A program made the translations under genes and the position numbers. A DNA stretch of 64,000 nt from positions 3,622-67,621 of the forward strand of contig JAHJDH010000033.1 of NCBI GenBank assembly GCA_018812625.1, given 5' to 3'. Shown in pieces: positions 33,665 to 48,073 of this stretch (position 1 is the first letter of the stretch; every line of letters begins with the position of its first letter). The notes below the pieces were generated by a model. It was not told the origin of the DNA, did not search any database, and saw only the letters and a list, made by a program, of their open reading frames with translations. This stretch comes from Candidatus Micrarchaeota archaeon (GTDB lineage Archaea; Micrarchaeota; Micrarchaeia; Anstonellales; Bilamarchaeaceae).

Positions 33665-33814
33665 CCAAACACCCCAATATAATTATGTAAAATAGTTCTT
33701 TTAACCTTACGTTTTAACATAAATTGACATAAATAGTTCCAAACGAGATATGAATAGTTTAAAAACTAACTGTTCAAATATCACTTTACACTTTATTGGG
33801 CCCGTAGCTCAGCA

Positions 33815-33863
33815 AGAAAACTTTTGGAAAAAGTTTTATCAAAACCCAGAAGTTATCCTGAAC
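33815..33863 (+). other. tRNA-Ile intron 1 (non-canonical, D-loop)
   Basis: Central 4-bp helix TCAG (33809-12) / CTGA (33858-61) is flanked by 3-nt bulges CAA and ACC. The inner helix is GAAAACTTTT / AGAAGTTATC. The outer helix is weak (relaxed BHB). Boundaries could shift by 1-2 nt. Confidence 0.65.
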
Positions 33864-33885
33864 CGGTTAGAGCGTTCGACTGATA

Positions 33886-33937
33886 CGAGCTTTTGGAAAA
33901 AGCTCGACCAAAACTTGCTTCCTAAAAGTTCTCGGTC
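33886..33937 (+). other. tRNA-Ile intron 2 (canonical 37/38 position)
   Basis: The anticodon stem TTCGA/TCGAA continues into the central helix CTGA (33880-83) / TCGG (33932-35). It is flanked by bulges TAC and TCA, followed by the helix GAGC / GTTC. This is a full hBHBh' motif. Confidence 0.8.
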
Positions 33938-33960
33938 ATCGAAAGGTCACGAGTTCAAAT

Positions 33961-33983
33961 CTCGCCGGGCCCATTTTCTTATT
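33961..33983. repeat. attL: 23-bp direct repeat covering the 3' end of tRNA-Ile
   Basis: ctcgccgggcccattttcttatt is identical to 47527-47549. Confidence 0.85.
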
Positions 33984-34012: not shown

Positions 34013-34930
34013 GTGAAAAATACGTCAGAGTTCTTACCATACACGGAACCAGTTTTGGAAGTCCAAAACACAATATCTGATTTTGGCGGTCTATGGGCCC
34101 ATCTGAAATCAGATACCAAGCCAACAAGGCGCGAAACAAAACTAATGTGGCCAGAAGCAAAATTAATTTTGGAGTTCCTGGGCCGACATCTCCCCAAACA
34201 AAGATTGATCCGTGCACTGACGGTACTGAGCGACCATCGCAAGCGCAGATTCCTGCGCAGCAGGATTCCAAAATACGGATCTTTGAACAAAGGATTCACG
34301 GAAGATGAGCTTGTAAAGTTCCTGAATTGCGTGGATGATCATAAGGCTCTGCTACTATTCACTTTTCAGGCGGTTTTGGGCCTTCGGATCAGTGAAGCAG
34401 TGCAAATTCACGTCAAAGACATCAATCTCAAAACCAGGGAACTGAAGATCCACAATGTCAAGTGCGATCGTCTTGACGTTCTGCCAATCCCCCCACAACT
34501 TTTTGAACAAACAATAAAATACATCAGCGACTGGGAGGATGAAATCGTCAGGCACGAAGGCTACCTTTTCTACAGCGAGTTCTATCCAAGAAACAACAAG
34601 ACTCCCCATATCCGTACAGACTATGCAAGAGTATACTTCACCAAAGCACTAAACAAAGCCAAGCTTGACGAAACCTACGCAATTTCAACCGGTTCACAGC
34701 CCAAGCTCATGCACCGCCTCACCACTCACAGCTTGCGTCACTATGCCATCACTAACTTCGCAAAGAAAAACAACGGAAATGTCATGCTGACAAGCAAATT
34801 CGCACGCCATAGGAAGATCAATACGACGATGGTTTATGTCTACACCCAAAAAGAAGAACTTTACAGAAGCATAGATCTACTTCAGGATGGAACATTGGAA
34901 AAAATCCGGAAACTACAAGAGATCGAATGA
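34013..34930 (+). CDS. tyrosine recombinase / integrase
   Basis: Box I LGLRISEAVQI, box II HSLRHYAITNF, and catalytic Tyr region TTMVYVYT. GTG start; the true start is uncertain. Confidence 0.88.
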   Translation: MKNTSEFLPYTEPVLEVQNTISDFGGLWAHLKSDTKPTRRETKLMWPEAKLILEFLGRHLPKQRLIRALTVLSDHRKRRFLRSRIPKYGSLNKGFTEDELVKFLNCVDDHKALLLFTFQAVLGLRISEAVQIHVKDINLKTRELKIHNVKCDRLDVLPIPPQLFEQTIKYISDWEDEIVRHEGYLFYSEFYPRNNKTPHIRTDYARVYFTKALNKAKLDETYAISTGSQPKLMHRLTTHSLRHYAITNFAKKNNGNVMLTSKFARHRKINTTMVYVYTQKEELYRSIDLLQDGTLEKIRKLQEIE

Positions 34931-35380: not shown

Positions 35381-37660
35381 ATGCCCAACAATGATCTTCG
35401 TAAGAAAAAAGAGGAATTTGAACAAGATAATTTAACAATTTATAACGAAACAAAAGAAAAAGCACGAAACGAATGGACGAATTTTGATAAGAAGTTTGGG
35501 AAAGACAGTTTAACAAACTTGACATTATTGAGCTATTCTCTAGGTGATCCTGATTCTGATTCTTTTTCTAACTGGGTCGAAAAAAAGACCTCTTCTGTTG
35601 CAACGATTTCTGGTGGAAGTGCCGCAATGTTCTATGTCTGGTCTGAAAAAAAGCTCTATCCAACCAAATTTAAACAGGGAATGCTCGGGCACCATAACAC
35701 AAGGATTATTGACCGTAGTGTTGCTGAAATTGAATTTCAAAAAATCAAGAATACGATATTGAAAATTATATTGTTGGCCGAAAAAAATGATTTTAAATCA
35801 ATTGACGAATTAGATCTTCTTTCACCAGTTGTTAAGTCAAAAATATTGTACCTTTACTTCCCCGATAAGATTACTAGCATCATGGCTTCCACATACGTGG
35901 CTGAAGCATGTAAAATGATGGGCGTACTTTTTGATGATGATCATCCAATGGATTCGAATCACAGACTTTTAGCGAATATGAAAAAAAATGGAGAGTTTAA
36001 TGATTGGGATTCGCATAAAATCGGTTCTTTCCTTTTGTACTTGCTTGCCTATCGAACCCAGCCGAGCATTTTCATTGCTCCAAGACGGAGAGAACATAAA
36101 GGAGCTATAACAGAATCGACTGATGCGTTAGAAGGATATTCCTGGGTAGATGTCGAACCTTATCTAAACGATGATGAAAAACAGAAGTTAGAAGGAAGAA
36201 GTAGGTATCATATTTGGGGTAATAAAGGCGGAAGAACGCAAAAACAATGGCGAAAAATGCAAAAAGGGGATCTTATCCTTTTTTACGGCGACAACATCTT
36301 TTATGCAGCTGGAAAATTATATCATAAGACGCATAATAAGGCACTTGCTGATCATCTGTGGGACACAGATGAAGATGGGAGATCCTGGGGGTATACTTTT
36401 TTTGTTGAAAATCTAAAAACTATTTCAATCCCACTTCATCTATTGAAGCAACTTGCTCCTGAAGTTTATAGTGAGGGATTTCGACCACAACAATTCGTGG
36501 AGATGAATGAAAAATGTCTTGAAAAAATCCACCAGGAATTTGGATCAGTTGAAGGTTTCTTGGATAAGTACTCTGAGCCTCATATATTAAGAGAACTGAA
36601 AGCTCCAATAACTATTCAAGCTCCACAGAAATCAATGGAACAAGAAAATCCATGGAATATTACTCCGGAAATGTTAAATGCCGAGCTTCAGCACTTATAT
36701 TTTGATGAGCCTGATAGTTTTTTTAAAAACTTGTGTAATCTATTAAATTCTGGAAGTAATATAATTCTTGTAGGGCCTCCGGGAACTGGTAAAACCGAAG
36801 TGGCCCTAGCCGTTTCTAAGCTGGCTAAAAAATATGTGCTAGGAAAAGACGGAATATGTCATGTCTTTTCAACTGCAACTTCTGATTGGACAACTTTTGA
36901 TACGATCGGCGGTTATATGCCGACAAAAAGTAATGAGTTAGAGTTCAAAGAAGGACAGTTTCTTAGGGCAATTCGCGATGACAAAATTCTAGTAATCGAT
37001 GAAATAAACAGGGCAGAAATAGACAAGGCATTTGGACAATTGTTTACTGTACTTTCCGGACAAAGCGTTGAGCTGCAGTTTTTAGATGCTAACAATCTGC
37101 CAATAAAATTAGAATCATCCAAAGAAATCCTAAATAGTTTCAAAAAAGATAATAAATACATCATTGGCTCAAATTGGCGCATCCTTGCTACAATGAACAC
37201 CTTGGATAAAGCTGCTCTTTATCAGATGTCATATGCATTCATGAGAAGGTTTGCATTCGTCCATGTTGATGTCCCGATTAATAAATCTGAATGTCTGAAA
37301 ACAATCAACCGGCAAGACAATTATGATATGGATGATGCACTAATACAAAAAATTGGTATTCTGTGGGATTCAATAAGCAAATCCGAACAGGGAAAAGAAA
37401 ACCCAAGACAAATAGGTCCGGCTGTTTTTTCAAGCATTATCAAACTCGTAAAGAATAGCAATGTAGATCCTGCCGACGAAGATAAGCTGGATAAAATATT
37501 AGCCAGTGCAATAATCGCATTTGTCCTGCCACAATTCGAAGGTGCCACTGTCGAAACTGAACTGAAGCCATTGGCAAAGTCCCTTAAAAAATATGAGAAA
37601 CACCTAGCGAGGTTTTTTGAGGAAATGTTTGGAGAAGATTTTGGAAATCTTACGAGGTAG
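35381..37660 (+). CDS. McrB-like AAA+ (AAA_5) restriction NTPase with N-terminal sensor region including a PUA-like (EVE/ASCH-type) module
   Basis: Walker A LVGPPGTGKTE, Walker B ILVIDEINRAE, and McrB-type WRILATMNTLDKA..MRRF. The middle segment reads YHIWGNKGG..WRKMQKGDLILFYGDNIFYAAGKL, the PUA-like pattern. Confidence 0.8.
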   Translation: MPNNDLRKKKEEFEQDNLTIYNETKEKARNEWTNFDKKFGKDSLTNLTLLSYSLGDPDSDSFSNWVEKKTSSVATISGGSAAMFYVWSEKKLYPTKFKQGMLGHHNTRIIDRSVAEIEFQKIKNTILKIILLAEKNDFKSIDELDLLSPVVKSKILYLYFPDKITSIMASTYVAEACKMMGVLFDDDHPMDSNHRLLANMKKNGEFNDWDSHKIGSFLLYLLAYRTQPSIFIAPRRREHKGAITESTDALEGYSWVDVEPYLNDDEKQKLEGRSRYHIWGNKGGRTQKQWRKMQKGDLILFYGDNIFYAAGKLYHKTHNKALADHLWDTDEDGRSWGYTFFVENLKTISIPLHLLKQLAPEVYSEGFRPQQFVEMNEKCLEKIHQEFGSVEGFLDKYSEPHILRELKAPITIQAPQKSMEQENPWNITPEMLNAELQHLYFDEPDSFFKNLCNLLNSGSNIILVGPPGTGKTEVALAVSKLAKKYVLGKDGICHVFSTATSDWTTFDTIGGYMPTKSNELEFKEGQFLRAIRDDKILVIDEINRAEIDKAFGQLFTVLSGQSVELQFLDANNLPIKLESSKEILNSFKKDNKYIIGSNWRILATMNTLDKAALYQMSYAFMRRFAFVHVDVPINKSECLKTINRQDNYDMDDALIQKIGILWDSISKSEQGKENPRQIGPAVFSSIIKLVKNSNVDPADEDKLDKILASAIIAFVLPQFEGATVETELKPLAKSLKKYEKHLARFFEEMFGEDFGNLTR

Positions 37661-37662
37661 TA

Positions 37663-39039
37663 TTGAATATGGTTGAACTCAGAGAAGAAAGACCACTTAA
37701 AGATTATGACTCCGAATTTCTCGACAAACTTAGAGCAGACATTGGAAATGGAATCCTTCAAATATATCTCCATGAATACTCCGAATTACTACCTGAGCAA
37801 CGGAGATTAAAGGACGCGATAGGATCCAATTTTCTGGAACGCATTTGTGGTGCAGATTTAGAAAAATTAAAAAAAATTCATTATTGTATCCGTCGCTCAT
37901 ATGTCGAAGAGTTCAATAGAGAATTAGAAGCATATTTCAGAAATATTGTACATAAAACATCTAACAGAGTATATCCAAGAAAAGGATTTGTTCGTGGTAA
38001 AATTGAATGGAAACGTACTTTTGAAGGTCGACTCTGCCAGGGCAAAGATATGTCACTATTTTTTTGTAAAGAAATTGAGAAAGATTATGACCTGCCAGAG
38101 AATCTTATTCTAAAATTTTTGCTGTTAAAAATCGACTCATATATCTCAAGTTCTAAATTAGTTAAAGAAGGTGATGAAAATATTGAAGAGTGGAAGGTAG
38201 CACTAGCGAAATTAAAACATTTGATTGATAGGATAAAGAAAAATGTATATTTCAAAGAAATCGGCAAGAACTTATCACTGGGTGAATTGGAGCAAGCGAT
38301 CGGTTCCAGAACAGAATATTTGGCAAAAAATTCACGAAGTAAGTTTATCAGAGAACAACTCATTTCCCGTGCCTACGCCGAATATAAAATGCTCATGGTT
38401 TATAACTATTCCAACACACTTGATGAAGTTATCAAAAAAACAATCCTAAGTCCGAAAAACAATTCCCGTCTTTATGAATTATTCGCATTGAATTGCTTAC
38501 TACTTAATTTTATACAGTATACGAAGAAGGGCGACCTAAAACCTTTCAGAGGAACTGGGGATCAAATAGTTAGTTTTGAATTGCCTAAGTCAAATACTCT
38601 GGTATATATCTACGACAATACGCTTCCAACAAATTTCGTGGGAAAAGTTTACCCTAACTTGAAAAAGAGATATTTCCCAGGTACTGATCTAAATTCAGTT
38701 GACGAACAATCTAGAAGACCAGATATAATCATAGAACTAGTATCTACAAAAAATGGCACCGTTAAACGGGAATATATAATATTAGAAGTAAAATTAACGC
38801 GAGATAAGGGGTATATCAAAGAGTCTTTGTATAAAGTAATGGGGTATCTGTATGACTTTTATTTCAATGAAAAAGATATGTTCGCAAAACAGGCGATTCT
38901 TTTAGTTCATGAATGGGAAGAGCAAAGAAATATTGTAGATTCATCATACCCAATAATTTTGTTGAACTATATGAACTATAATGAGAGCATTAAGGAAATA
39001 GTTTTACATTTAACCCATAAACGTCTTAACATATTGTAA
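37663..39039 (+). CDS. McrC-like PD-(D/E)xK nuclease partner
   Basis: It starts 3 nt after the McrB-like stop. C-terminal RRPDIIIELV..YIILEVKLT forms a PD..ExK motif. Confidence 0.65.
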   Translation: MNMVELREERPLKDYDSEFLDKLRADIGNGILQIYLHEYSELLPEQRRLKDAIGSNFLERICGADLEKLKKIHYCIRRSYVEEFNRELEAYFRNIVHKTSNRVYPRKGFVRGKIEWKRTFEGRLCQGKDMSLFFCKEIEKDYDLPENLILKFLLLKIDSYISSSKLVKEGDENIEEWKVALAKLKHLIDRIKKNVYFKEIGKNLSLGELEQAIGSRTEYLAKNSRSKFIREQLISRAYAEYKMLMVYNYSNTLDEVIKKTILSPKNNSRLYELFALNCLLLNFIQYTKKGDLKPFRGTGDQIVSFELPKSNTLVYIYDNTLPTNFVGKVYPNLKKRYFPGTDLNSVDEQSRRPDIIIELVSTKNGTVKREYIILEVKLTRDKGYIKESLYKVMGYLYDFYFNEKDMFAKQAILLVHEWEEQRNIVDSSYPIILLNYMNYNESIKEIVLHLTHKRLNIL

Positions 39040-39070: not shown

Positions 39071-40681
39071 CTATTGATTTTCTTCTATCTTTTTTTGAAC
39101 TAATGGTAAAAAGCAACTTTCGTAAATTCTTTTTGAAGCAGTAGATCCATAAGAATCTATTTTTGTCGGAAGTAATGTTTCTTTTTTGCTATAAAGTGCT
39201 TCAATGAATTTACCAAATGAACGTTCAAGATCAGACTGATTATCCTTGTAGAATTGTCGCAATTTTAAAAATACTCCAAATCCAGCATTTGATTTATAAA
39301 AATCTTCGAAATCCTTTTCACAAATATATTTCAAAGTTGCTAGATCAGATGAAAGTCCTTTAGAAAATTCAATTATTTTATTGTCCTCCTCCCCATTGTC
39401 ATTTATTAATTTTCTAAACTGAGGATCTGATTTTAAAGCGGTCACAAGACCAATAATTGTTGGTGTTTCCCTTGTCCTTTTTATGCCTACTGTCTTGTGG
39501 GTGTAAATTTGATTTTTTAGCACTGAGTCATTATTCATGTTCAAGTACAGTATGATTTTCGAAGCAATTTTTTTAGCAAAAAGTCTGTTTTTTCTGCTTA
39601 TCGACATTCCTATAAGAAGAACACAAACGAGATTCGGATCAACAGTTTTCTGAGTCGAATTAATATCAATGAACATTTGCATCTCATCTTCGTCACTCAA
39701 ATTATCAAAAATTACAACTGGTAATCTATTCCCTTCTCTTTGTTCAACTTTTAATTTTGCAAAGCCACAGACCCTATGCTGTCCATCTATTATCTTGAAA
39801 GATAGGTATGATTCTGGGACTCTAATTTTGACTGGAACTACGGGGTCATTTTCCTGTATGTTTTCACTTTCCTTAAGTTTTAAGGTATATCGACTTAATG
39901 CCACGTCAGATTTCAATATTATTGCATTTGGGAAAAGATGGTGGTGGTTGGAATTCTCGACATATTTCCAAATGTCCTTGATTTTTGATTCTTCTAAGAA
40001 TCTTTGATATCCTCCGATTTCATCTTCGAATGCCGATCTACGATGAACATATGCATTTTTTAAAAGGAATTCTGGTGAGAGAGATGCAACATAAAAAACA
40101 TGTCCATATCTATTCCTTATCTTTAATGCAGGTTCTGTGGAATTTTTTTCTTTAATTTTTTTCATTTTCATTGCTTTAAGTAGATTAAACCTGGCAAATT
40201 CCCCTAGAATCTTCTTATAATACATTAATTCATCTAATGATCCTTTGTTGAGTATGTAATTGTCATCATTTTCTAATACTCCTTTGTCGTCAATTTCTTT
40301 GCTTTTTTTCCAATAAATATCATCATACTTTAGGTCGACAAAAAGACGTTTAACCCTTAAAGTTTTTGGTATCTGCGGGTATTTTTCCAATACAGCTTCA
40401 AGGTATTCCTTTTTTGACCATTTTAGAAAAAAATCTTCTGCTTTAGCAAAACATTTTTCTTCCTGGTCTGTTACCTCCACAAGGATAATATAATCATCAT
40501 CACAAATGAAGATAGCGTCTAACTGGCCTACTGTTCTTCCTTTGTGGACAATGCTGCAACCTTTTCCACCGTCTAAGAAACCAAAACCAATTTCAACTAA
40601 AAATTCTGATACTTTGTATTCTGACAAAACATCAAAATCACTTTCAGAAAATTCTTTTTCTAAATACTTAGATCTTACCAT
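39071..40681 (-). CDS. DGQHR-domain (DndB/DpdB-like, ParB-fold) protein with an extra N-terminal domain
   Basis: Literal motif FKIIDGQHRVCGFAKL. The N-terminal ~100 aa (..GQLDAIFICDDDYIILVEVTD..) are weakly reminiscent of a restriction-endonuclease fold. Confidence 0.75.
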   Translation of the reverse strand: MVRSKYLEKEFSESDFDVLSEYKVSEFLVEIGFGFLDGGKGCSIVHKGRTVGQLDAIFICDDDYIILVEVTDQEEKCFAKAEDFFLKWSKKEYLEAVLEKYPQIPKTLRVKRLFVDLKYDDIYWKKSKEIDDKGVLENDDNYILNKGSLDELMYYKKILGEFARFNLLKAMKMKKIKEKNSTEPALKIRNRYGHVFYVASLSPEFLLKNAYVHRRSAFEDEIGGYQRFLEESKIKDIWKYVENSNHHHLFPNAIILKSDVALSRYTLKLKESENIQENDPVVPVKIRVPESYLSFKIIDGQHRVCGFAKLKVEQREGNRLPVVIFDNLSDEDEMQMFIDINSTQKTVDPNLVCVLLIGMSISRKNRLFAKKIASKIILYLNMNNDSVLKNQIYTHKTVGIKRTRETPTIIGLVTALKSDPQFRKLINDNGEEDNKIIEFSKGLSSDLATLKYICEKDFEDFYKSNAGFGVFLKLRQFYKDNQSDLERSFGKFIEALYSKKETLLPTKIDSYGSTASKRIYESCFLPLVQKKIEENQ

Positions 40682-40851: not shown

Positions 40852-41907
40852 ATGCGTTCTCCTGTCTCCAAATTTGACCATGTACAAGTTGTCAAATATG
40901 CTGGCAACAAGGCAAAATTATTAGGTCACCTGATCCCAATCATCACAAAAATTCTTGCACCAAATCAAACTCTTCTTGATCTTTTTGCCGGAACCCATGC
41001 TGTTGGTTATGCCCTTAAGACTAGAAATCGGATAATCGGCAATGATGTTCAAGCATATGGTTGGGCTATAGGAAAAGGAATATTGGAAAGTAATTATTCG
41101 CTCTCAACCGAATCAGCAAAAGATGAAATCTTAAGTATGTTTGATGATTTTGATTATGAAAAATATCATCTGTTTTCTGAAATATATTCAAATACTTACT
41201 TCGGTAAAAAACAATGTCTTGAGGTAGATAAATTAAAATTTGCGATTGATAACTCCAATATTCCAACCAAGAAGAAGTTTTCCTATTTATGTTGTCTTAT
41301 GTACTCTATGGGTCAAAATGCCTCTACTACTGGTTATTTTGCACAATATCTACCTCGAGAAAAAACAAAACAACAAAAATCTAGAAGTATCATAGACCAC
41401 TTCTTAAAAAAATGCAATTCTTTTAACCTTGTAAAAGGATCGTCCAGAAACATTTCTTTGAAATATGATTACAAAAAATTATTTTCTGATAAAAGACTTA
41501 CTCACTACATTGAAGATAGTGCTGTTATCTATGCAGATCCCCCATACTCTCAGGCGCACTATTCTCGTTATTATCATATTCTTGAAACGTTGGTTGAATA
41601 TGACTATCCAAAAACATCTTACAAGGGACTTTATAGGCCTGGACGTTTTCTGAGTGATTTTTGCAGAAAATCAACTGTTGAGAAAGAATTTCAAAGAATG
41701 TTTTCATCTATTGCAACTCATGACAAAAAACTTGTTTTGTCCTATGTCAATTCTGGAAGTGGTTTGTTGCCTGAGAAAAAACTACTTGAAATTGCATCTA
41801 CTGAATTTAGTAATGTTTCTGAGCCCATAAGATTTAACTATCACCATTCTCGGTTGGGCAATGGAAAACCTCTCAAGGTAGAGGAATATGTGCTTGTTTG
41901 TCATTAA
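40852..41907 (+). CDS. Dam-like (D12 class) N6-adenine DNA methyltransferase
   Basis: VKYAGNKAKLL (Dam N-terminal motif), LLDLFAGTHAVG (FxGxG) and IYADPPYSQAHYSRYYH (DPPY). Confidence 0.85.
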   Translation: MRSPVSKFDHVQVVKYAGNKAKLLGHLIPIITKILAPNQTLLDLFAGTHAVGYALKTRNRIIGNDVQAYGWAIGKGILESNYSLSTESAKDEILSMFDDFDYEKYHLFSEIYSNTYFGKKQCLEVDKLKFAIDNSNIPTKKKFSYLCCLMYSMGQNASTTGYFAQYLPREKTKQQKSRSIIDHFLKKCNSFNLVKGSSRNISLKYDYKKLFSDKRLTHYIEDSAVIYADPPYSQAHYSRYYHILETLVEYDYPKTSYKGLYRPGRFLSDFCRKSTVEKEFQRMFSSIATHDKKLVLSYVNSGSGLLPEKKLLEIASTEFSNVSEPIRFNYHHSRLGNGKPLKVEEYVLVCH

Positions 41908-41986
41908 TCCATAGTACTACTTTTTGACAGTCTAATCTTACACACATATCCAAAAATAGATACTTTTATAAATCATTTGTTGCATA

Positions 41987-42018
41987 TTAATGTCATTAGC
42001 AAAATGTTAATGTGATTA
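41987..42018. promoter_or_regulatory. two operator-like near-palindromic 12-mers spaced 20 bp, between a TATA-like box and the 77-aa gene
   Basis: TTAATGTCATTA (41987-41998) and TTAATGTGATTA (42007-42018). The core TAATG-T-CATTA is palindromic. TTTTATAAAT lies at about 41964-41973. Confidence 0.4.
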
Positions 42019-42019
42019 A

Positions 42020-42253
42020 ATGGTAAAACCAAGAGTTGAAAATGAATCTAAAAGCGATAAATTCAAAAGGATAGCCACTATGAGAACTAGGAAAATTATT
42101 GATGCCATTAGGCTTCTTGGAAATTGTTCGAATACCTCGACCTATGGGTATACTGATGAAGATGTGAAAGCAATCTACAACGCCATTGAAAAAGAGATTA
42201 AACGGACCAAGGTACTTTTTCAAAAGAAAGTTGATGATGATTTTTCATTATAG
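42020..42253 (+). CDS. small hypothetical protein (77 aa), possible controller/regulator of the downstream operon
   Basis: First gene of a tightly spaced operon, basic and helical, preceded by the operator-like repeats. No HTH motif confidently recognised. Confidence 0.5.
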   Translation: MVKPRVENESKSDKFKRIATMRTRKIIDAIRLLGNCSNTSTYGYTDEDVKAIYNAIEKEIKRTKVLFQKKVDDDFSL

Positions 42254-42262
42254 GTGATTTGA

Positions 42263-44032
42263 TTGACTAAAAAAATAAAGATTTTAGAAAAACCTACTGA
42301 TTCCCAAAGACAGGAGATATTGATGAGAATCTCCCAATTATATAATCATCCAGAATATGTCGTTTATGAATACATTCAAAACTCTATTGACAGTGCTTTT
42401 GAAATTAAGGACAAAGAACCTTCATATGATACAAGAAAAATATTAGTGCATATCGATTATTCTAAAAAACAGTTTATCATTCAGGATAACTGTGCTGGTA
42501 TGGATGAAGAAGAGATTGAAAACCTTCCAAATAGCGTCTTTCAATCTAGGAAAAAGAGATCTCCTTGGATAACTGGGGAATTTGGGTATGGAATTCAATC
42601 CTTTAGGGCTTGGTTCGACGAAATCCTTATTGTTTCAAAGGCAAGTGACCAATCAAAGGCAACAGCTATCATCTTTAATCAAAGTGTCGATGCTGAAATA
42701 GATGAAAAAAAGAAATTGCCTGATTTTGGAGCTGTTTACCCAGTTAGGGCTAGTTCAATAAACTACAAAAGACCGACCGGAACTGATGTTTGGATAAAAG
42801 GAATTAGAAAAAAATTACGGAAAAAATCTTTTGACTTTATTGCAAAAAACCTTTTTACATTGATCCCTATCCACTTTGAAGATGCTCTTGAATCTGGATT
42901 GGTAGAAATCCAGATTTATGACTGGAAACGTAGATCTGGAAAATTCTTTCCACGTGTTTACCAATTAAATCCACTGAGACTTTCAGATATCCCAGGAGAA
43001 GACATATCTGGAACTATAAATGATAACTCTGGTAAAAAACTTGCTAGTTATCACTTTAAAATTGTCGAACCTATCTACTTCAACAAAACACCAGAGATCA
43101 AGGATTACAAACCAAGGTTAAGTAGGCTTGGTACTGAACTCGGAAAACTAAGTCGCTTAAAAAGCCTCCAAGATTTTGGTAGATCGAACGATGTAGATCT
43201 ATTGATCTGGGATAGGCCTGAATTAATCGGAAAAATAAATATAGAAAGAAAAATCCCCATCCGCATTGACAGGACTGATTTAGAACCATCATTGGAAAGT
43301 CAAGTATTGTTTGATAAAATTGCAGAATTAACCCTCCAAATCCAAGAAAAATTTGATGAAATGGATAAAAGGAAACTCGAAGAACATGAAGAATCACTTT
43401 CAGAGATAATGTCCGATGTTTTTACTGACCTCTCAAAAGAGTTAGATGCTGATTTATTTGGACGAAAAAGAAAAATACGCAGTTCTAGCGGCTTAATAAC
43501 TTCTATGATAGAAACTGGTGCTGGATTTGTTCTTGGTAACAAAGATTTCCATGGAGACGGATCTCAAAAAGGAGACGTGTCTTCTCAAATTGATGATTCA
43601 GGAAAAGAAGGTATCGAATCAACTATATCTGATGAAAAAACCCCATCTCCTTCAGAAGAAGGTACTGGACAAATGCCATATAAAGATATAAAACAAAGAG
43701 GCATGGGCGTGGAATTCAAACCTCTTGGTACTACTCAACCTCCATCAAATGTTTGGGGAGATAGAATGATAGTAGTCAATACCGAACATCCATTTTACCG
43801 TGAAAGACTTACTGAACATAAGAGCAAAATTATTACAAAAAGACTTATAGCTTACCTAGCTATTGTAACTACTCCATGGTTCCTTGATAAATATTGGAAT
43901 AAAAGAGGTGTAGAGCCTGAAAGTACCGATAAAATTCAAAAAATTGTCGAGACGATAGCGAGAGTAGAAAAAATACTTTGGGATAAAAGAGAACTCATAA
44001 AGAAAAAAGTTGCAGAGGTAGAAGATGTTTGA
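42263..44032 (+). CDS. GHKL-superfamily (MORC/HATPase_c_3-like) ATPase
   Basis: N-box EYIQNSIDSA, G1 box QDNCAGMDEEE and G2 box GEFGYGIQSF. The remaining ~350 aa have no recognised motif. Confidence 0.8.
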   Translation: MTKKIKILEKPTDSQRQEILMRISQLYNHPEYVVYEYIQNSIDSAFEIKDKEPSYDTRKILVHIDYSKKQFIIQDNCAGMDEEEIENLPNSVFQSRKKRSPWITGEFGYGIQSFRAWFDEILIVSKASDQSKATAIIFNQSVDAEIDEKKKLPDFGAVYPVRASSINYKRPTGTDVWIKGIRKKLRKKSFDFIAKNLFTLIPIHFEDALESGLVEIQIYDWKRRSGKFFPRVYQLNPLRLSDIPGEDISGTINDNSGKKLASYHFKIVEPIYFNKTPEIKDYKPRLSRLGTELGKLSRLKSLQDFGRSNDVDLLIWDRPELIGKINIERKIPIRIDRTDLEPSLESQVLFDKIAELTLQIQEKFDEMDKRKLEEHEESLSEIMSDVFTDLSKELDADLFGRKRKIRSSSGLITSMIETGAGFVLGNKDFHGDGSQKGDVSSQIDDSGKEGIESTISDEKTPSPSEEGTGQMPYKDIKQRGMGVEFKPLGTTQPPSNVWGDRMIVVNTEHPFYRERLTEHKSKIITKRLIAYLAIVTTPWFLDKYWNKRGVEPESTDKIQKIVETIARVEKILWDKRELIKKKVAEVEDV

Positions 44033-44777
44033 TAAAACAGTTCTCGTAAAACTCCAAAAACTTGCAAGTGAATATAAAAGGGCGGATCTGCCAAATACTA
44101 AAATTAGCAAACTATGGGAAATTGGAGATTATCTTATAAAAATTGGTTTAACCTCACAAGGGGATTTTTGGAAAATTCAGAAACAAGACGTTTTTGTTAG
44201 TAGGGCCATCCTGCTTAGATCATATTGGGTCCGAAAAGCATTTACTAAGTCCGAAGTGGAAAAAATAAATCTAAATATCTCAAAAATTTTACCAGTCCTT
44301 CCTTATCTTGCTCCAAAATCAAAAAAATTATCTCCAAAGGAAAAACAAGTGATCAAGAAGAAAATATTACATAATGAAATCCCCACTGGAATAAAATTAG
44401 CCAAAAAATCTAAACAAAGAAAAATAGAAACTCTGGAACTTGTAAAAAGACTTAATCTCTTGATAAAAACTATTGAATCTGAAAAAATTAGTCTCTTTAA
44501 GAAACAATATCCAAAACAAAATTTTGAACATTTGAAGAGGCAAATTATTGATCTACTTCAGGGCGCTTTACCAACCGAAAAACACACAGATTCCTTAGAG
44601 CATGCAAAAAGCTTTGCCTTAAATATCGATCCTCAACTCTCTGAAATATTCGATATCTTATACATTGCAGCAAAAAAAACAAGGACGGACTCAAGACGCA
44701 TGCAAAAAAGAGTTTTTGACCCATATCTGATTTCTCCTTTTGTGGATCAACTCTTCTTCAAAAAGAAAGAAATCTGA
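44025..44777 (+). CDS. hypothetical helical protein, translationally coupled to the GHKL ATPase
   Basis: The ATG lies 8 nt inside the end of the ATPase gene. 250 aa, K-rich and helical, with no recognised motif. Confidence 0.55.
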   Translation: MFDKTVLVKLQKLASEYKRADLPNTKISKLWEIGDYLIKIGLTSQGDFWKIQKQDVFVSRAILLRSYWVRKAFTKSEVEKINLNISKILPVLPYLAPKSKKLSPKEKQVIKKKILHNEIPTGIKLAKKSKQRKIETLELVKRLNLLIKTIESEKISLFKKQYPKQNFEHLKRQIIDLLQGALPTEKHTDSLEHAKSFALNIDPQLSEIFDILYIAAKKTRTDSRRMQKRVFDPYLISPFVDQLFFKKKEI

Positions 44778-44834
44778 GAATCTTTCTCATCAATATGACT
44801 AAAAATTGTGACTTCTTTCATTTATTGTGATAAC

Positions 44835-45728
44835 ATGAATAACTATTGGATATTTGTGGTAAATGACTGGAAAGATTCATCTGGTCACAAGCACAAGGCA
44901 AATGAAATTTTTGATACTCTGAAAGTAGATAAAGTTTGGGGTATTGGAGAGCGTACTCCAAATAGAAAGAATTTGTCTTCTGGAGATAAAGTTGTTTTTT
45001 ATCAAGCAGGTTCAAATGGACAAAGATTTCTTGGTCATGGAACCTTATCATCTAAATGTAAACATTTTTCTAAAGATTCTCATTATTCTGAAAAAACTAA
45101 TAATATCATTTACGAATGGGGTAACATTGTTACATTCGAAGATTTTGATGCTTTTGAACAATCAAAACCTCTTTCAGATCTGGCCGAAAACTTGGATTTC
45201 ATTGTAAAAAAGGAAATGGCTGCGGCTTATTTTCAAAGTGGTGTCAGATCAATAACAAAGACTGATTTTGACATGATTGTTTCTGAAGATCTTGTTAAAA
45301 TATCTCAAAAAGGCCAAGAAGAAGGTATTGAAGATAAAGGTTTGTTCGTTCTTGAGAAATATCTCCAAGATTTTATTGTTAGTAATTGGGATAACATCGA
45401 TTTTGGTCAAAAACTTCGTATTTATCAAGATGATGATGGAAATCCTGGTCCGCAATATACTACTGATGTGGGTTATATAGATATCTTAGCAATTGATGAA
45501 AAAAATAATTTTGTTGTAATCGAACTGAAAAAAGGACGTGAGAGCGACAAAGTTGTAGGTCAGTTACTCAGATATATCGGCTGGGTAAAAAAGAATTTGG
45601 CAACCAAAGACCAAGGTGTTCAAGGAATTATAATCTGTAAAGATCTTGATGAAAAACTTGAATATGCCGTATCTGCAGTTTCAAACATTTCGATAAAACG
45701 GTATAGTATGAGCTTTAAATTACTCTAA
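44835..45728 (+). CDS. PUA-like (EVE-type) domain fused to a NucS/DUF91-type PD-(D/E)xK endonuclease domain
   Basis: N-terminus YWIFVVNDW..VWGIGE..LSSGDKVVFYQAGSNGQRFLGHGTL. C-terminus DVGYIDILAIDEKNNFVVIELKKGRESDKVVGQLLRYIGW, the NucS C-terminal signature. Confidence 0.75.
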   Translation: MNNYWIFVVNDWKDSSGHKHKANEIFDTLKVDKVWGIGERTPNRKNLSSGDKVVFYQAGSNGQRFLGHGTLSSKCKHFSKDSHYSEKTNNIIYEWGNIVTFEDFDAFEQSKPLSDLAENLDFIVKKEMAAAYFQSGVRSITKTDFDMIVSEDLVKISQKGQEEGIEDKGLFVLEKYLQDFIVSNWDNIDFGQKLRIYQDDDGNPGPQYTTDVGYIDILAIDEKNNFVVIELKKGRESDKVVGQLLRYIGWVKKNLATKDQGVQGIIICKDLDEKLEYAVSAVSNISIKRYSMSFKLL

Positions 45729-47526: not shown

Positions 47527-47549
47527 CTCGCCGGGCCCATTTTCTTATT
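47527..47549. repeat. attR: second copy of the 23-bp direct repeat (displaced tRNA-Ile 3' fragment)
   Basis: ctcgccgggcccattttcttatt is identical to 33961-33983. Confidence 0.85.
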
Positions 47550-47581: not shown

Positions 47582-48073
47582 TCAATGATCTTGTGCCAGA
47601 GCATCCATATCATATCGTATCCCATTAGATATCCTAATCTTACGTAAATCTATGATGATTTCTCTAACATATCTTTTCATAAGCTGAATCTCCTTTTCGC
47701 TAATTTCAATAGTATGACCTGGTTTAGAAAATACTTTTTTCGACAATATCTGAATTTCTCCATCAACTGACCGTGGTTCGCAGTGTGCAATCTCATTTCG
47801 AAATTCGACTATCTTTTTCAGTTTTTTATAAACATTATCACCTAACTTTTTATTTACTTTTTCTGTTTTGCAAATGGATGAGAAAATGGGGAGTTTTGGT
47901 CCAAAAGTCAACCTCTCAAAAAATGTTTCTCTAAATAACTGTCTTTTTTTATAATTTGATTGAGAAAAATAATCAAGAATGAAATTTTCTATTTCAGTTT
48001 CAGCAATGATTGAATATTGAATTATTTTTCCACATCTTATAAAAAATTCAGTATGTTTTTTAGGTTCCATCAT
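47582..48073 (-). CDS. hypothetical protein with a HEPN-like Rx4H motif
   Basis: 163 aa, helical, with ..IVEFRNEIAHCEP.. (R-x4-H). The assignment rests on this motif only. Confidence 0.4.
   Translation of the reverse strand: MMEPKKHTEFFIRCGKIIQYSIIAETEIENFILDYFSQSNYKKRQLFRETFFERLTFGPKLPIFSSICKTEKVNKKLGDNVYKKLKKIVEFRNEIAHCEPRSVDGEIQILSKKVFSKPGHTIEISEKEIQLMKRYVREIIIDLRKIRISNGIRYDMDALAQDH

Follow-up and report, generated by a model that had tools for sequence, protein, structure and literature searches.

An Hsp90-like GHKL ATPase operon linked to a DNA methyltransferase in a defence island of a Micrarchaeota archaeon, a candidate restriction-like module

Results and Discussion

Genes of the locus

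We analyzed a block of genes at positions 42020–45728 of a 64,000-nucleotide (nt) stretch of DNA, called the window in the following, from a Candidatus Micrarchaeota archaeon (DPANN). An earlier note on this DNA had taken the block for a four-gene operon and candidate unnamed defence system built around a MORC-like GHKL ATPase, and its four same-strand open reading frames (ORFs) of 77, 589, 250 and 306 amino acids (aa) are all present. We call their products leader, ATPase, partner and EVE-nuclease; the methyltransferase gene upstream of them belongs to the conserved set and is therefore listed with them.

40852–41907, + strand: D12-class N6-adenine DNA methyltransferase (MethyltransfD12, E 4.9e-18; PADLOC MTase_II, E 2.6e-31)
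42020–42253, + strand: leader, 77 aa, basic, isoelectric point (pI) 9.5, no Pfam, NCBIfam or PADLOC family
42263–44032, + strand: GHKL ATPase, 589 aa, TTG start behind a GGTGAT ribosome-binding site
44025–44777, + strand: partner, 250 aa, pI 10.0, ATG 8 nt inside the ATPase gene
44808–45728, + strand: EVE-nuclease, 306 aa, EVE domain plus PD-(D/E)xK nuclease of the NucS_C/YhcG_C type (Pfam, PADLOC)

The window ATPase is 100% identical to an NCBI entry of Micrarchaeota annotated as 'ATP-binding protein'; its neighbours are listed as hypothetical proteins. None of the PADLOC 2.0 component models, including those for McrBC, BREX, DISARM, Dnd/Ssp/Dpd, Gabija, Septu, Mza and Shedu, matches leader, ATPase or partner, no specific model for any of the three was found in NCBIfam release 20, and a literature search turned up no paper that names the gene set and nothing on PDC-M33 or DUF6339, which are described below. 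That the block belongs to no named system thus holds for leader, ATPase and partner, which match neither a named nor a candidate system family of PADLOC 2.0, NCBIfam 20 or Pfam, but not for the fourth protein, the nuclease half of which matches the candidate PDC-S02.

Conservation of the ATPase–partner pair and its methyltransferase

Genomic context was compared at 12 distinct archaeal and bacterial loci including the window, with flanks available at 10 of them (L numbers are given where loci have to be told apart). ATPase and partner genes are adjacent in 12/12 loci with an 8-nt overlap or no more than 5 nt between them; the 8-nt overlap that had been pointed out in the window is real and this tight coupling is kept elsewhere. 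The pairwise identities of ATPases and partners co-vary (r = 0.88, 55 pairs), and the pair falls into two clades showing 33–50% identity inside the window's clade and 22–32% between the clades. All 10 loci with flanks have a DNA methyltransferase, often a DpnM/Dam-like one, next to the pair, within about 200 nt in nine of them and 2 kb off in L001. The four-gene set proposed before had left out this enzyme, which is the companion actually conserved, and had included the EVE-nuclease, which is absent from 11/11 other loci. Co-occurrence therefore stands for ATPase and partner and, in part, for the leader (6 of the 10 loci with upstream sequence), but not for the nuclease.

An exhaustive search and context look-ups were needed to collect these loci, as the word-indexed search missed clear homologues. 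The latter gave eight ATPase matches in 5.8 billion clusters, and scans for ATPase loci gave two in species genomes, three in metagenomes and none in the viral scan, no ATPase relatives being found in viral contigs. With the partner, an exhaustive profile search of 1.84 billion representatives returned 20 clusters, ten close and ten distant, and partner queries from the window and L014 found nothing on plasmids.

Among the methyltransferases, the D12 enzymes of L003, L009, L012, L014 and L017 are orthologous (32–47% identical), and so are the N6_N4 enzymes of L001, L003 and L021 (51–87% identical). For the D12 enzyme of L012 GATC specificity is likely, given its close match to DpnM (1e-57) and E. 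coli Dam (5e-35). In L005 a DpnII-family nuclease is encoded directly upstream, and L014 is a bare three-gene cassette of methylase, ATPase and partner with metabolic genes on both sides, located on a contig of 62% G+C that encodes an ECF-type (extracytoplasmic function) sigma-70 factor. Between L003 (7651–10429) and L021 (1549–4329) the N6_N4 methylases are 87% and the leaders 80% identical, but the ATPases only 26% and the partners 25%, showing that the pair has been exchanged as a cassette. L001 has 25 GATC sites where a Markov model expects 75, and L003, L009, L012, L019 and L021 also fall short of expectation (ratios 0.47–0.68). We considered uniform GATC avoidance as a signature of the family and rejected it, the signal being inconsistent among loci.

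Small genes were also seen beside the N6_N4 methylases, namely those for 194–203-aa proteins in L001 (5734–6345, − strand) and L003 (5990–6574, − strand), 60% identical to each other, and for a 272-aa protein in L019 (9822–10640, − strand). No Pfam family was found for any of them, and the 203-aa and 272-aa proteins are also without a PADLOC match; they are plausible type II restriction nucleases.

ATPase and partner

The GHKL boxes read from the window ATPase in the earlier note are supported by profile search, as HATPase_c_3 of Pfam matches with 37.3 bits (cut-off 25; E 3.4e-9), and by the motif residues themselves. GHKL motifs I–IV are found with E/N/D in the N-box, DxGxG in G1, GxxGxG in G2 and GT in motif IV, and E36, N40, D43, D75, G79, G105, G108, G110, G173 and T174 are invariant in 11 members that are 22–50% identical to the window protein. 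Because all Bergerat-fold residues are invariant, the ATPase is probably catalytically active. In the AlphaFold2 (AF2) model, Hsp90-like N-terminal and middle domains (residues 1 to about 340), the latter of mixed alpha/beta type, are followed by a long helix of 55 residues (344–398), a linker of about 80 residues (about 400–480) with a predicted local distance difference test score (pLDDT) below 50, and a conserved C-terminal domain (481–589).

The best fold relatives are Hsp90, HtpG and TRAP1, with a Foldseek E of 1e-14 over about 400 residues of the N-terminal and middle domains, and the profile of the ATPase family matches HtpG with E 1.6e-8. All of the best 60 PDB profile matches belong to the Hsp90 family, and the best 50 Foldseek matches are Hsp90, TRAP1, HtpG or GyrB. 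Although these proteins give the best match in both sequence and fold over the N-terminal ATPase and middle domains, the identity amounts to 12–16% and the query-normalised TM-score to 0.24–0.39, the C-terminal domain is unrelated and the genomic setting is a different one. The NCBIfam HSP90 and HtpG models likewise leave the window ATPase far under their cut-off (31.6 vs 455 bits). The label 'MORC-like' had to be given up: a regular-expression scan for the S5-domain motif GhXhhpXXRhl gave no match in 11/11 members, the nearest look-alike in the window ATPase (G290...R298) is not conserved, and no MORC-specific family was matched in a Pfam scan of the window protein. As this motif is absent and the nearest relatives are Hsp90 proteins, we use 'Hsp90-like GHKL' instead.

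For the C-terminal domain a PDB profile search gave no relative, and its conserved N-x-x-H pair plus Glu was insufficient to call it a nuclease, so that this assignment was dropped. In L007 (2817–4604) the ATPase is split into ORFs of 397 aa and 172 aa, whereas it is intact with 600 aa in the otherwise identical L009 (1422–3224); the split comes from a frameshift or an assembly error, or else the gene is a pseudogene.

The partner is a strongly basic, all-helical protein (AF2 pLDDT 86.7). Its fold has no match in the PDB or in a viral structure library (best E about 1), the PDB profile search was empty and no family could be assigned, making it an orphan in both family and fold. W31, G34, L37, W49 and R60 are invariant and Q52 is nearly so; none of the invariant residues is acidic, so that nothing points to a nuclease site. 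A motif likeness to the N-terminal domain of YhcG/DUF1016 was checked with hhalign, using a 19-sequence profile against E. coli YhcG, and rejected at a probability of 0.5%.

The leader and its link to PDC-M33

The operator-like sites proposed in front of the 77-aa gene are present as two copies of TTAATGTNATTA, 20 bp apart and just before the gene, and a possible promoter lies upstream of them.

41964–41972, + strand: TATA-box-like element TTTTATAAA, putative archaeal promoter, read from the sequence
41987–41998, no strand: operator-like site 1, TTAATGTCATTA, imperfect palindrome TAATG-N-CATTA
42007–42018, no strand: operator-like site 2, TTAATGTGATTA, overlapping the GTGAT ribosome-binding site

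The pattern TTAATGTNATTA, which was defined after the sites had been seen, has only these two matches in 64 kb against 0.11 expected, a count reached in 0/100 shuffles. In L001 the pattern TAAT-N3-ATTA has a single match in the 17.8-kb locus, 10 nt before the leader gene. The window leader is 53–62% identical to the leaders of L001, L003, L017 and L021 and 39% identical to that of L019; as the ATPases of these five loci are 25–50% identical to the window's, the leader is the best-conserved component. At two loci its place is taken by a protein of 316–325 aa (L009, 485–1435; L012, 685–1662; 57% identical to each other) with an N-terminal CxxC...CxxC zinc ribbon and winged-helix-looking regions, and hhalign revealed no relation between this protein and the leader.

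Using tblastn we found leader homologues on plasmids and in a Clostridium prophage, and each one inspected heads a compact operon. Seven plasmid or phage loci have leaders sharing 35–59% identity with that of the window, and five of these loci are of the PDC-M33 type: they consist of leader, a protein of about 620–640 aa, a second one of about 285–295 aa and a DUF6339 protein, and come from the phage NatCom_9291 and from plasmids of Arthrobacter, Deinococcus, Priestia and Planococcus. PADLOC identifies the genes of the phage, Arthrobacter and Deinococcus as PDC-M33 A, B and C (E values down to 5e-205, 6e-98 and 1e-193, respectively), and the loci from Priestia and Planococcus have the same gene sizes as PDC-M33 and an annotated DUF6339 gene. 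Other leader-headed operons are L028 (4998–8323) on an Ensifer plasmid, with leader, 800-aa and 229-aa proteins, and L030 (4983–10138) on a Dinoroseobacter plasmid, with leader, 621-aa and 461-aa proteins and an 'ATP-binding protein'. The Dinoroseobacter 621-aa protein is 20% identical to the phage protein in the PDC-M33A alignment, and the alignment of five large first proteins including it displays the GHKL boxes RExxQNxxDA, DxNTxGL and GxFGIGK. Compared with the ATPase family of the window by hhalign, the PDC-M33A alignment gives E 4e-4 and a probability of 34% over G1, G2 and motif IV. A relation of PDC-M33B to the partner was looked for by profile comparison and rejected, no similarity being found.

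Five of the seven loci encode a DNA methylase within 5 kb: three have Dcm together with Vsr, accompanied in two cases by a restriction nuclease, and the phage and Ensifer loci have an unclassified enzyme. At the Priestia locus, a MutH/Sau3AI-family gene stands in place of the methylase. PDC-M33 and the window module have in common a homologous leader as first gene, a protein with GHKL boxes, a tightly coupled partner, methylase or restriction genes nearby and their location on mobile elements. They differ in that the ATPases are related at superfamily level only, the partners are dissimilar, DUF6339 is missing in the window module, and the methylases beside three PDC-M33 loci are of the cytosine type (Dcm with Vsr) and those of the window module of the adenine type. 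Likewise, the PDC-M33 models of PADLOC gave no match with E ≤ 0.1 for the window leader, ATPase or partner or for distant members, and a DUF6339 gene is absent. With leader, GHKL-type ATPase, coupled partner and, mostly, a methylase nearby, the window module and PDC-M33 therefore share one plan while the enzyme families differ.

Most leader genes are preceded, within about 100 nt, by palindromes whose arms measure 5 bp or more; for example, Arthrobacter has GACTATATATCAGATATATAGTC, Deinococcus TATATTTCATATA, the phage TAATTATGATATAATTA and Priestia, inside a larger palindrome, TTAATGTATATTAA. Those of Arthrobacter and Deinococcus are perfect and AT-rich within 120-nt upstream stretches that are otherwise not AT-rich. 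The higher conservation of the leader, its occurrence in several operon types, its position as first gene and the upstream palindromes fit a controller that times a harmful pair against its methylase, and the leader is probably a controller or adaptor that this module and PDC-M33 operons have in common. In the window, TTTTATAAA would set the transcription start near site 1, and bound sites would block both initiation and the ribosome-binding site. The C proteins of type II restriction-modification systems are small first-gene controllers of 'dangerous' genes. Like them, the window leader stands first in its operon, behind paired palindromic sites and beside a separately transcribed methylase, and it is exchangeable; C proteins, however, are of the HTH_3/Xre type, whereas the leader matches neither HTH_3/Xre nor a known fold and its DNA binding is putative.

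The EVE-nuclease

The fusion of an EVE reader to a NucS-type nuclease had been recognised correctly in the earlier note (EVE 28.1 bits, cut-off 23; NucS_C 40.5 bits, cut-off 24), and the protein also matches YhcG_C (E 1.8e-7). Its nuclease half (residues 166–305) matches the single-gene candidate PDC-S02 with 1e-47, and the EVE half is without a match to those models. Relatives, annotated as 'endonuclease NucS domain-containing protein', are scattered across plasmids of bacteria and haloarchaea, and in the two relative loci inspected no ATPase–partner operon was found beside them. Proteins with such an EVE-PD(D/E)XK fusion have been described as putative type IV restriction enzymes, a class predicted to be autonomous (PMC7641849). 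With this class and PDC-S02 the window shares an identical architecture in gene 4 only, a gene that lies outside the conserved module. The gap between partner and EVE-nuclease is 30 nt on the same strand and no terminator-like site was found in it, so the nuclease gene may well be, and probably is, co-transcribed with the partner gene here. The protein starting at GTG 44808 is missing in the protein collection, in which its neighbours are present; its annotated start may be ATG 44835 (MNNYWIF...), in which case the gap after the partner is 57 nt. The EVE-nuclease is best treated as a predicted independent modification-dependent restriction enzyme that is a neighbour within the island.

The integrative element

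All these genes are located on a 13.6-kb integrative element, the features of which are as follows.

33798–33976, + strand: tRNA-Ile(GAU) with two introns of 52 nt each, in the D-loop and at the canonical position 37/38 (read from the sequence; ARAGORN after removal of the D-loop insert)
33961–33983, no strand: attL, left copy of the 23-nt repeat, overlapping the 3' end of the tRNA gene
34013–34930, + strand: tyrosine integrase of the element (Pfam Phage_integrase, E 7.6e-17)
47527–47549, no strand: attR, right copy of the 23-nt repeat, in direct orientation

The 'integrated element' of the earlier note is thus borne out by an exact 23-nt direct repeat, CTCGCCGGGCCCATTTTCTTATT, which bounds the element at 33961–33983 and 47527–47549, by the tRNA target and by the integrase gene. 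Integration took place at the 3' end of the tRNA-Ile gene, which the standard ARAGORN scan missed because of its two 52-nt introns; with the D-loop insert taken out, ARAGORN recognises tRNA-Ile(gat) and a canonical intron in it. The repeat CTTTTGGAAAAAG is found in each of the two introns. Between about 38 and 48 kb the G+C content drops from about 0.39–0.41 to 0.32–0.35.

The cargo of the element is a defence island. It comprises an McrB-like AAA_5 gene with a further gene downstream, a gene for a DGQHR/DpdB-like protein, the D12 adenine methylase, leader, ATPase and partner, the EVE-nuclease, a four-helix-bundle protein and a protein with two transmembrane segments. The McrB-like protein of 759 aa, part of which weakly resembles EVE (E 0.0099), and a following 458-aa protein without family are encoded at 35381–39039 (+ strand); the latter is presumably McrC-like, and if so, a second type IV-like system would be present within the element. 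The 536-aa DGQHR/DpdB-like protein (39071–40681, − strand; TIGR03187, E 6.6e-32; PADLOC DpdB, E 1e-21) is encoded divergently from the D12 methylase. By eye, the N-terminal region of the DGQHR/DpdB-like protein, GQLDAIFICDDDYIILVEVTDQEEK, resembles a PD-(D/E)xK motif, and this protein, which is absent from the related loci, might be the restriction partner of the window D12 methylase. A HEPN-like protein is encoded just beyond attR (47582–48073, − strand). Defence genes thus accompany the module in the window (McrB-like ATPase, DGQHR protein, EVE-nuclease, HEPN protein), and defence-type neighbours at the other loci are MNT-HEPN-like, MazE, HicB, Schlafen/AlbA_2 and Shedu genes or Dcm with Vsr and a nuclease.

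Interpretation of the conserved unit

We favour the reading that what is conserved is a restriction-like module, guarded by a methylase and dependent on ATP, whose effector step either is not nuclease-based or depends on a cryptic or recruited nuclease, and we put its probability at roughly 0.5. The DNA adenine methyltransferase would mark the host genome, the Hsp90-like GHKL ATPase and the basic all-helical partner would form the restriction-like arm, and the leader behind its palindromic sites would control expression of the operon in a role like that of C proteins. As the conserved set is without a nuclease, the pair would have to block DNA without cutting it, carry a cryptic catalytic site or recruit nucleases from nearby. 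In the first case unmarked DNA might be blocked in a BREX-like way or through MORC-like entrapment by an ATP-closed dimer; in the second the site would be hidden within the ATPase pair, and in the third the pair would call on nucleases encoded in its neighbourhood.

Several observations weigh against this reading. No nuclease, helicase or reader domain is present in the conserved set. The family is very rare, with eight ATPase matches and 20 partner clusters, so that the statistics come from about a dozen loci, several of them from related DPANN genomes. The D12 methylase of the window belongs to another lineage that is not orthologous to the enzymes of the other loci and has no solved relative, and GATC is not depleted in the window (ratio 0.95), L014, L015 and L017. 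The leader is absent from L005, L009, L012 and L014, where tblastn for hidden ORFs found none; it has no helix-turn-helix (HTH) family in Pfam or NCBIfam, no PDB profile match and no recognisable DNA-binding fold, and the operator sequences of distant loci cannot be aligned. Confidence in the AF2 model of the ATPase is moderate (pLDDT 65), and PDC-M33 is itself a PADLOC candidate.

In the model of the earlier note, all four genes act together and the EVE-nuclease is a modification-sensing effector gated by the ATPase–partner clamp. The same strand, the 30-nt gap and the missing terminator-like site speak for it, as does the variable slot 3' of the pair, which is filled by DUF6339 in PDC-M33, by genes for 89, 317 and 243 aa in L003 and by a 219-aa gene with AlbA_2 in L021, a pattern expected for swappable effectors. 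The nuclease is missing in the 11 other loci, however, its nuclease half corresponds to the single-gene PDC-S02, its relatives occur alone on plasmids and its class is predicted to be autonomous (PMC7641849), and a cutter of modified DNA beside a methylase argues for separate specificities. The conserved set contains a writer of the modification and neither a recognisable nuclease nor a reader, and we consider a four-gene machine of this kind improbable. Not quite as improbable, but still unlikely, is a cutter encoded next door or elsewhere, with the pair as accessory of a GATC-type restriction-modification system that acts as a MutL/MutH-like ATP switch for a latent type II-like nuclease at unmethylated sites. 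DpnII directly upstream in L005, the orthologous D12 methylases of five loci with the DpnM/Dam-like enzyme of L012, the 194–203-aa and 272-aa genes paired with N6_N4 methylases in L001, L003 and L019, the MutH/Sau3AI-family gene beside a PDC-M33 locus, the GATC depletion in L001, L003, L009, L012 and L021 and the analogy of GHKL ATPases, nucleases and methylation (PMC2292703) would all agree with such a switch. On the other hand, no candidate nuclease accompanies the methylase of L009, L012, L014, L017 and L021, the putative nucleases are without family, and GATC shows no depletion in the window, L014, L015 and L017.

A module outside defence could serve DNA compaction or silencing, methyl-directed repair or, as a chaperone-like helper, the methylase, for the benefit of the element or of the chromosome. 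That the closest solved relatives are chaperones, that a nuclease is absent and that both partners are basic would suit this idea, and so would chromosomal loci beside housekeeping genes, PolD (L001, L005) or metabolic genes (L014). Its distribution, though, is patchy and cross-domain with shuffling of cassettes, loci have defence genes as neighbours and are carried by integrative elements, plasmids and a prophage, a candidate derived from defence islands possesses the leader as well, and the extreme rarity does not fit housekeeping, all of which makes a non-defence role rather unlikely in our view. A bolder version of the favoured restriction-like reading can be put forward only tentatively: methylase, leader, ATPase and partner might be a self-sufficient archaeal and bacterial system that needs no nuclease and excludes unmethylated, often GATC-bearing foreign DNA through clamping or compaction driven by ATP, and might form together with PDC-M33 a wider unrecognised class of GHKL immune operons sharing one new controller family.

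Relation to known systems

GHKL ATPases in restriction-like operons, prokaryotic MORC and paraMORC1–5, were predicted by Iyer, Abhiman and Aravind 2008 (PMC2292703). The window module resembles these systems in having a GHKL ATPase with a second transducer-like domain, a linked methylase, mobile and patchily distributed operons and a predicted restriction-like role in conflict, but differs in that superfamily II helicase and nuclease partners, their main theme, are lacking, the S5 motif is absent, and leader and partner are new. Compared with the C-terminal features described for paraMORC1–5 (ExxxH; RecB-like nuclease; TIR; HxH) and their linkage to helicase or nuclease genes, no nuclease or TIR family was matched and no helicase was present in any locus. 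GHKL domains are also present in validated systems, for example in a Shedu variant (PMC12137116).

BREX is likewise guarded by a methylase, contains an ATPase and is without an identified nuclease. The likeness to the window module is one of logic only, since no families are common to both and no PADLOC BREX models matched. New here are the distinct Hsp90-like ATPase, the partner with its orphan fold, a leader family that extends across operon types, the strict linkage to an adenine methylase and the occurrence in DPANN archaea as well as bacteria.

Conclusion

To our knowledge, few GHKL ATPases of predicted restriction-like systems have been tested. The module described here would be a minimal three- or four-gene version without helicase or nuclease, in which the contribution of the ATPase itself is directly testable. 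Furthermore, it enlarges the small set of defence genes known from DPANN archaea, and it lies in a defence island integrated in a multi-intron tRNA gene that standard tRNA scanning overlooks. Finally, the common leader ties the unstudied PDC-M33 to a second ATPase family and points to a new and widespread family of regulators of defence operons.

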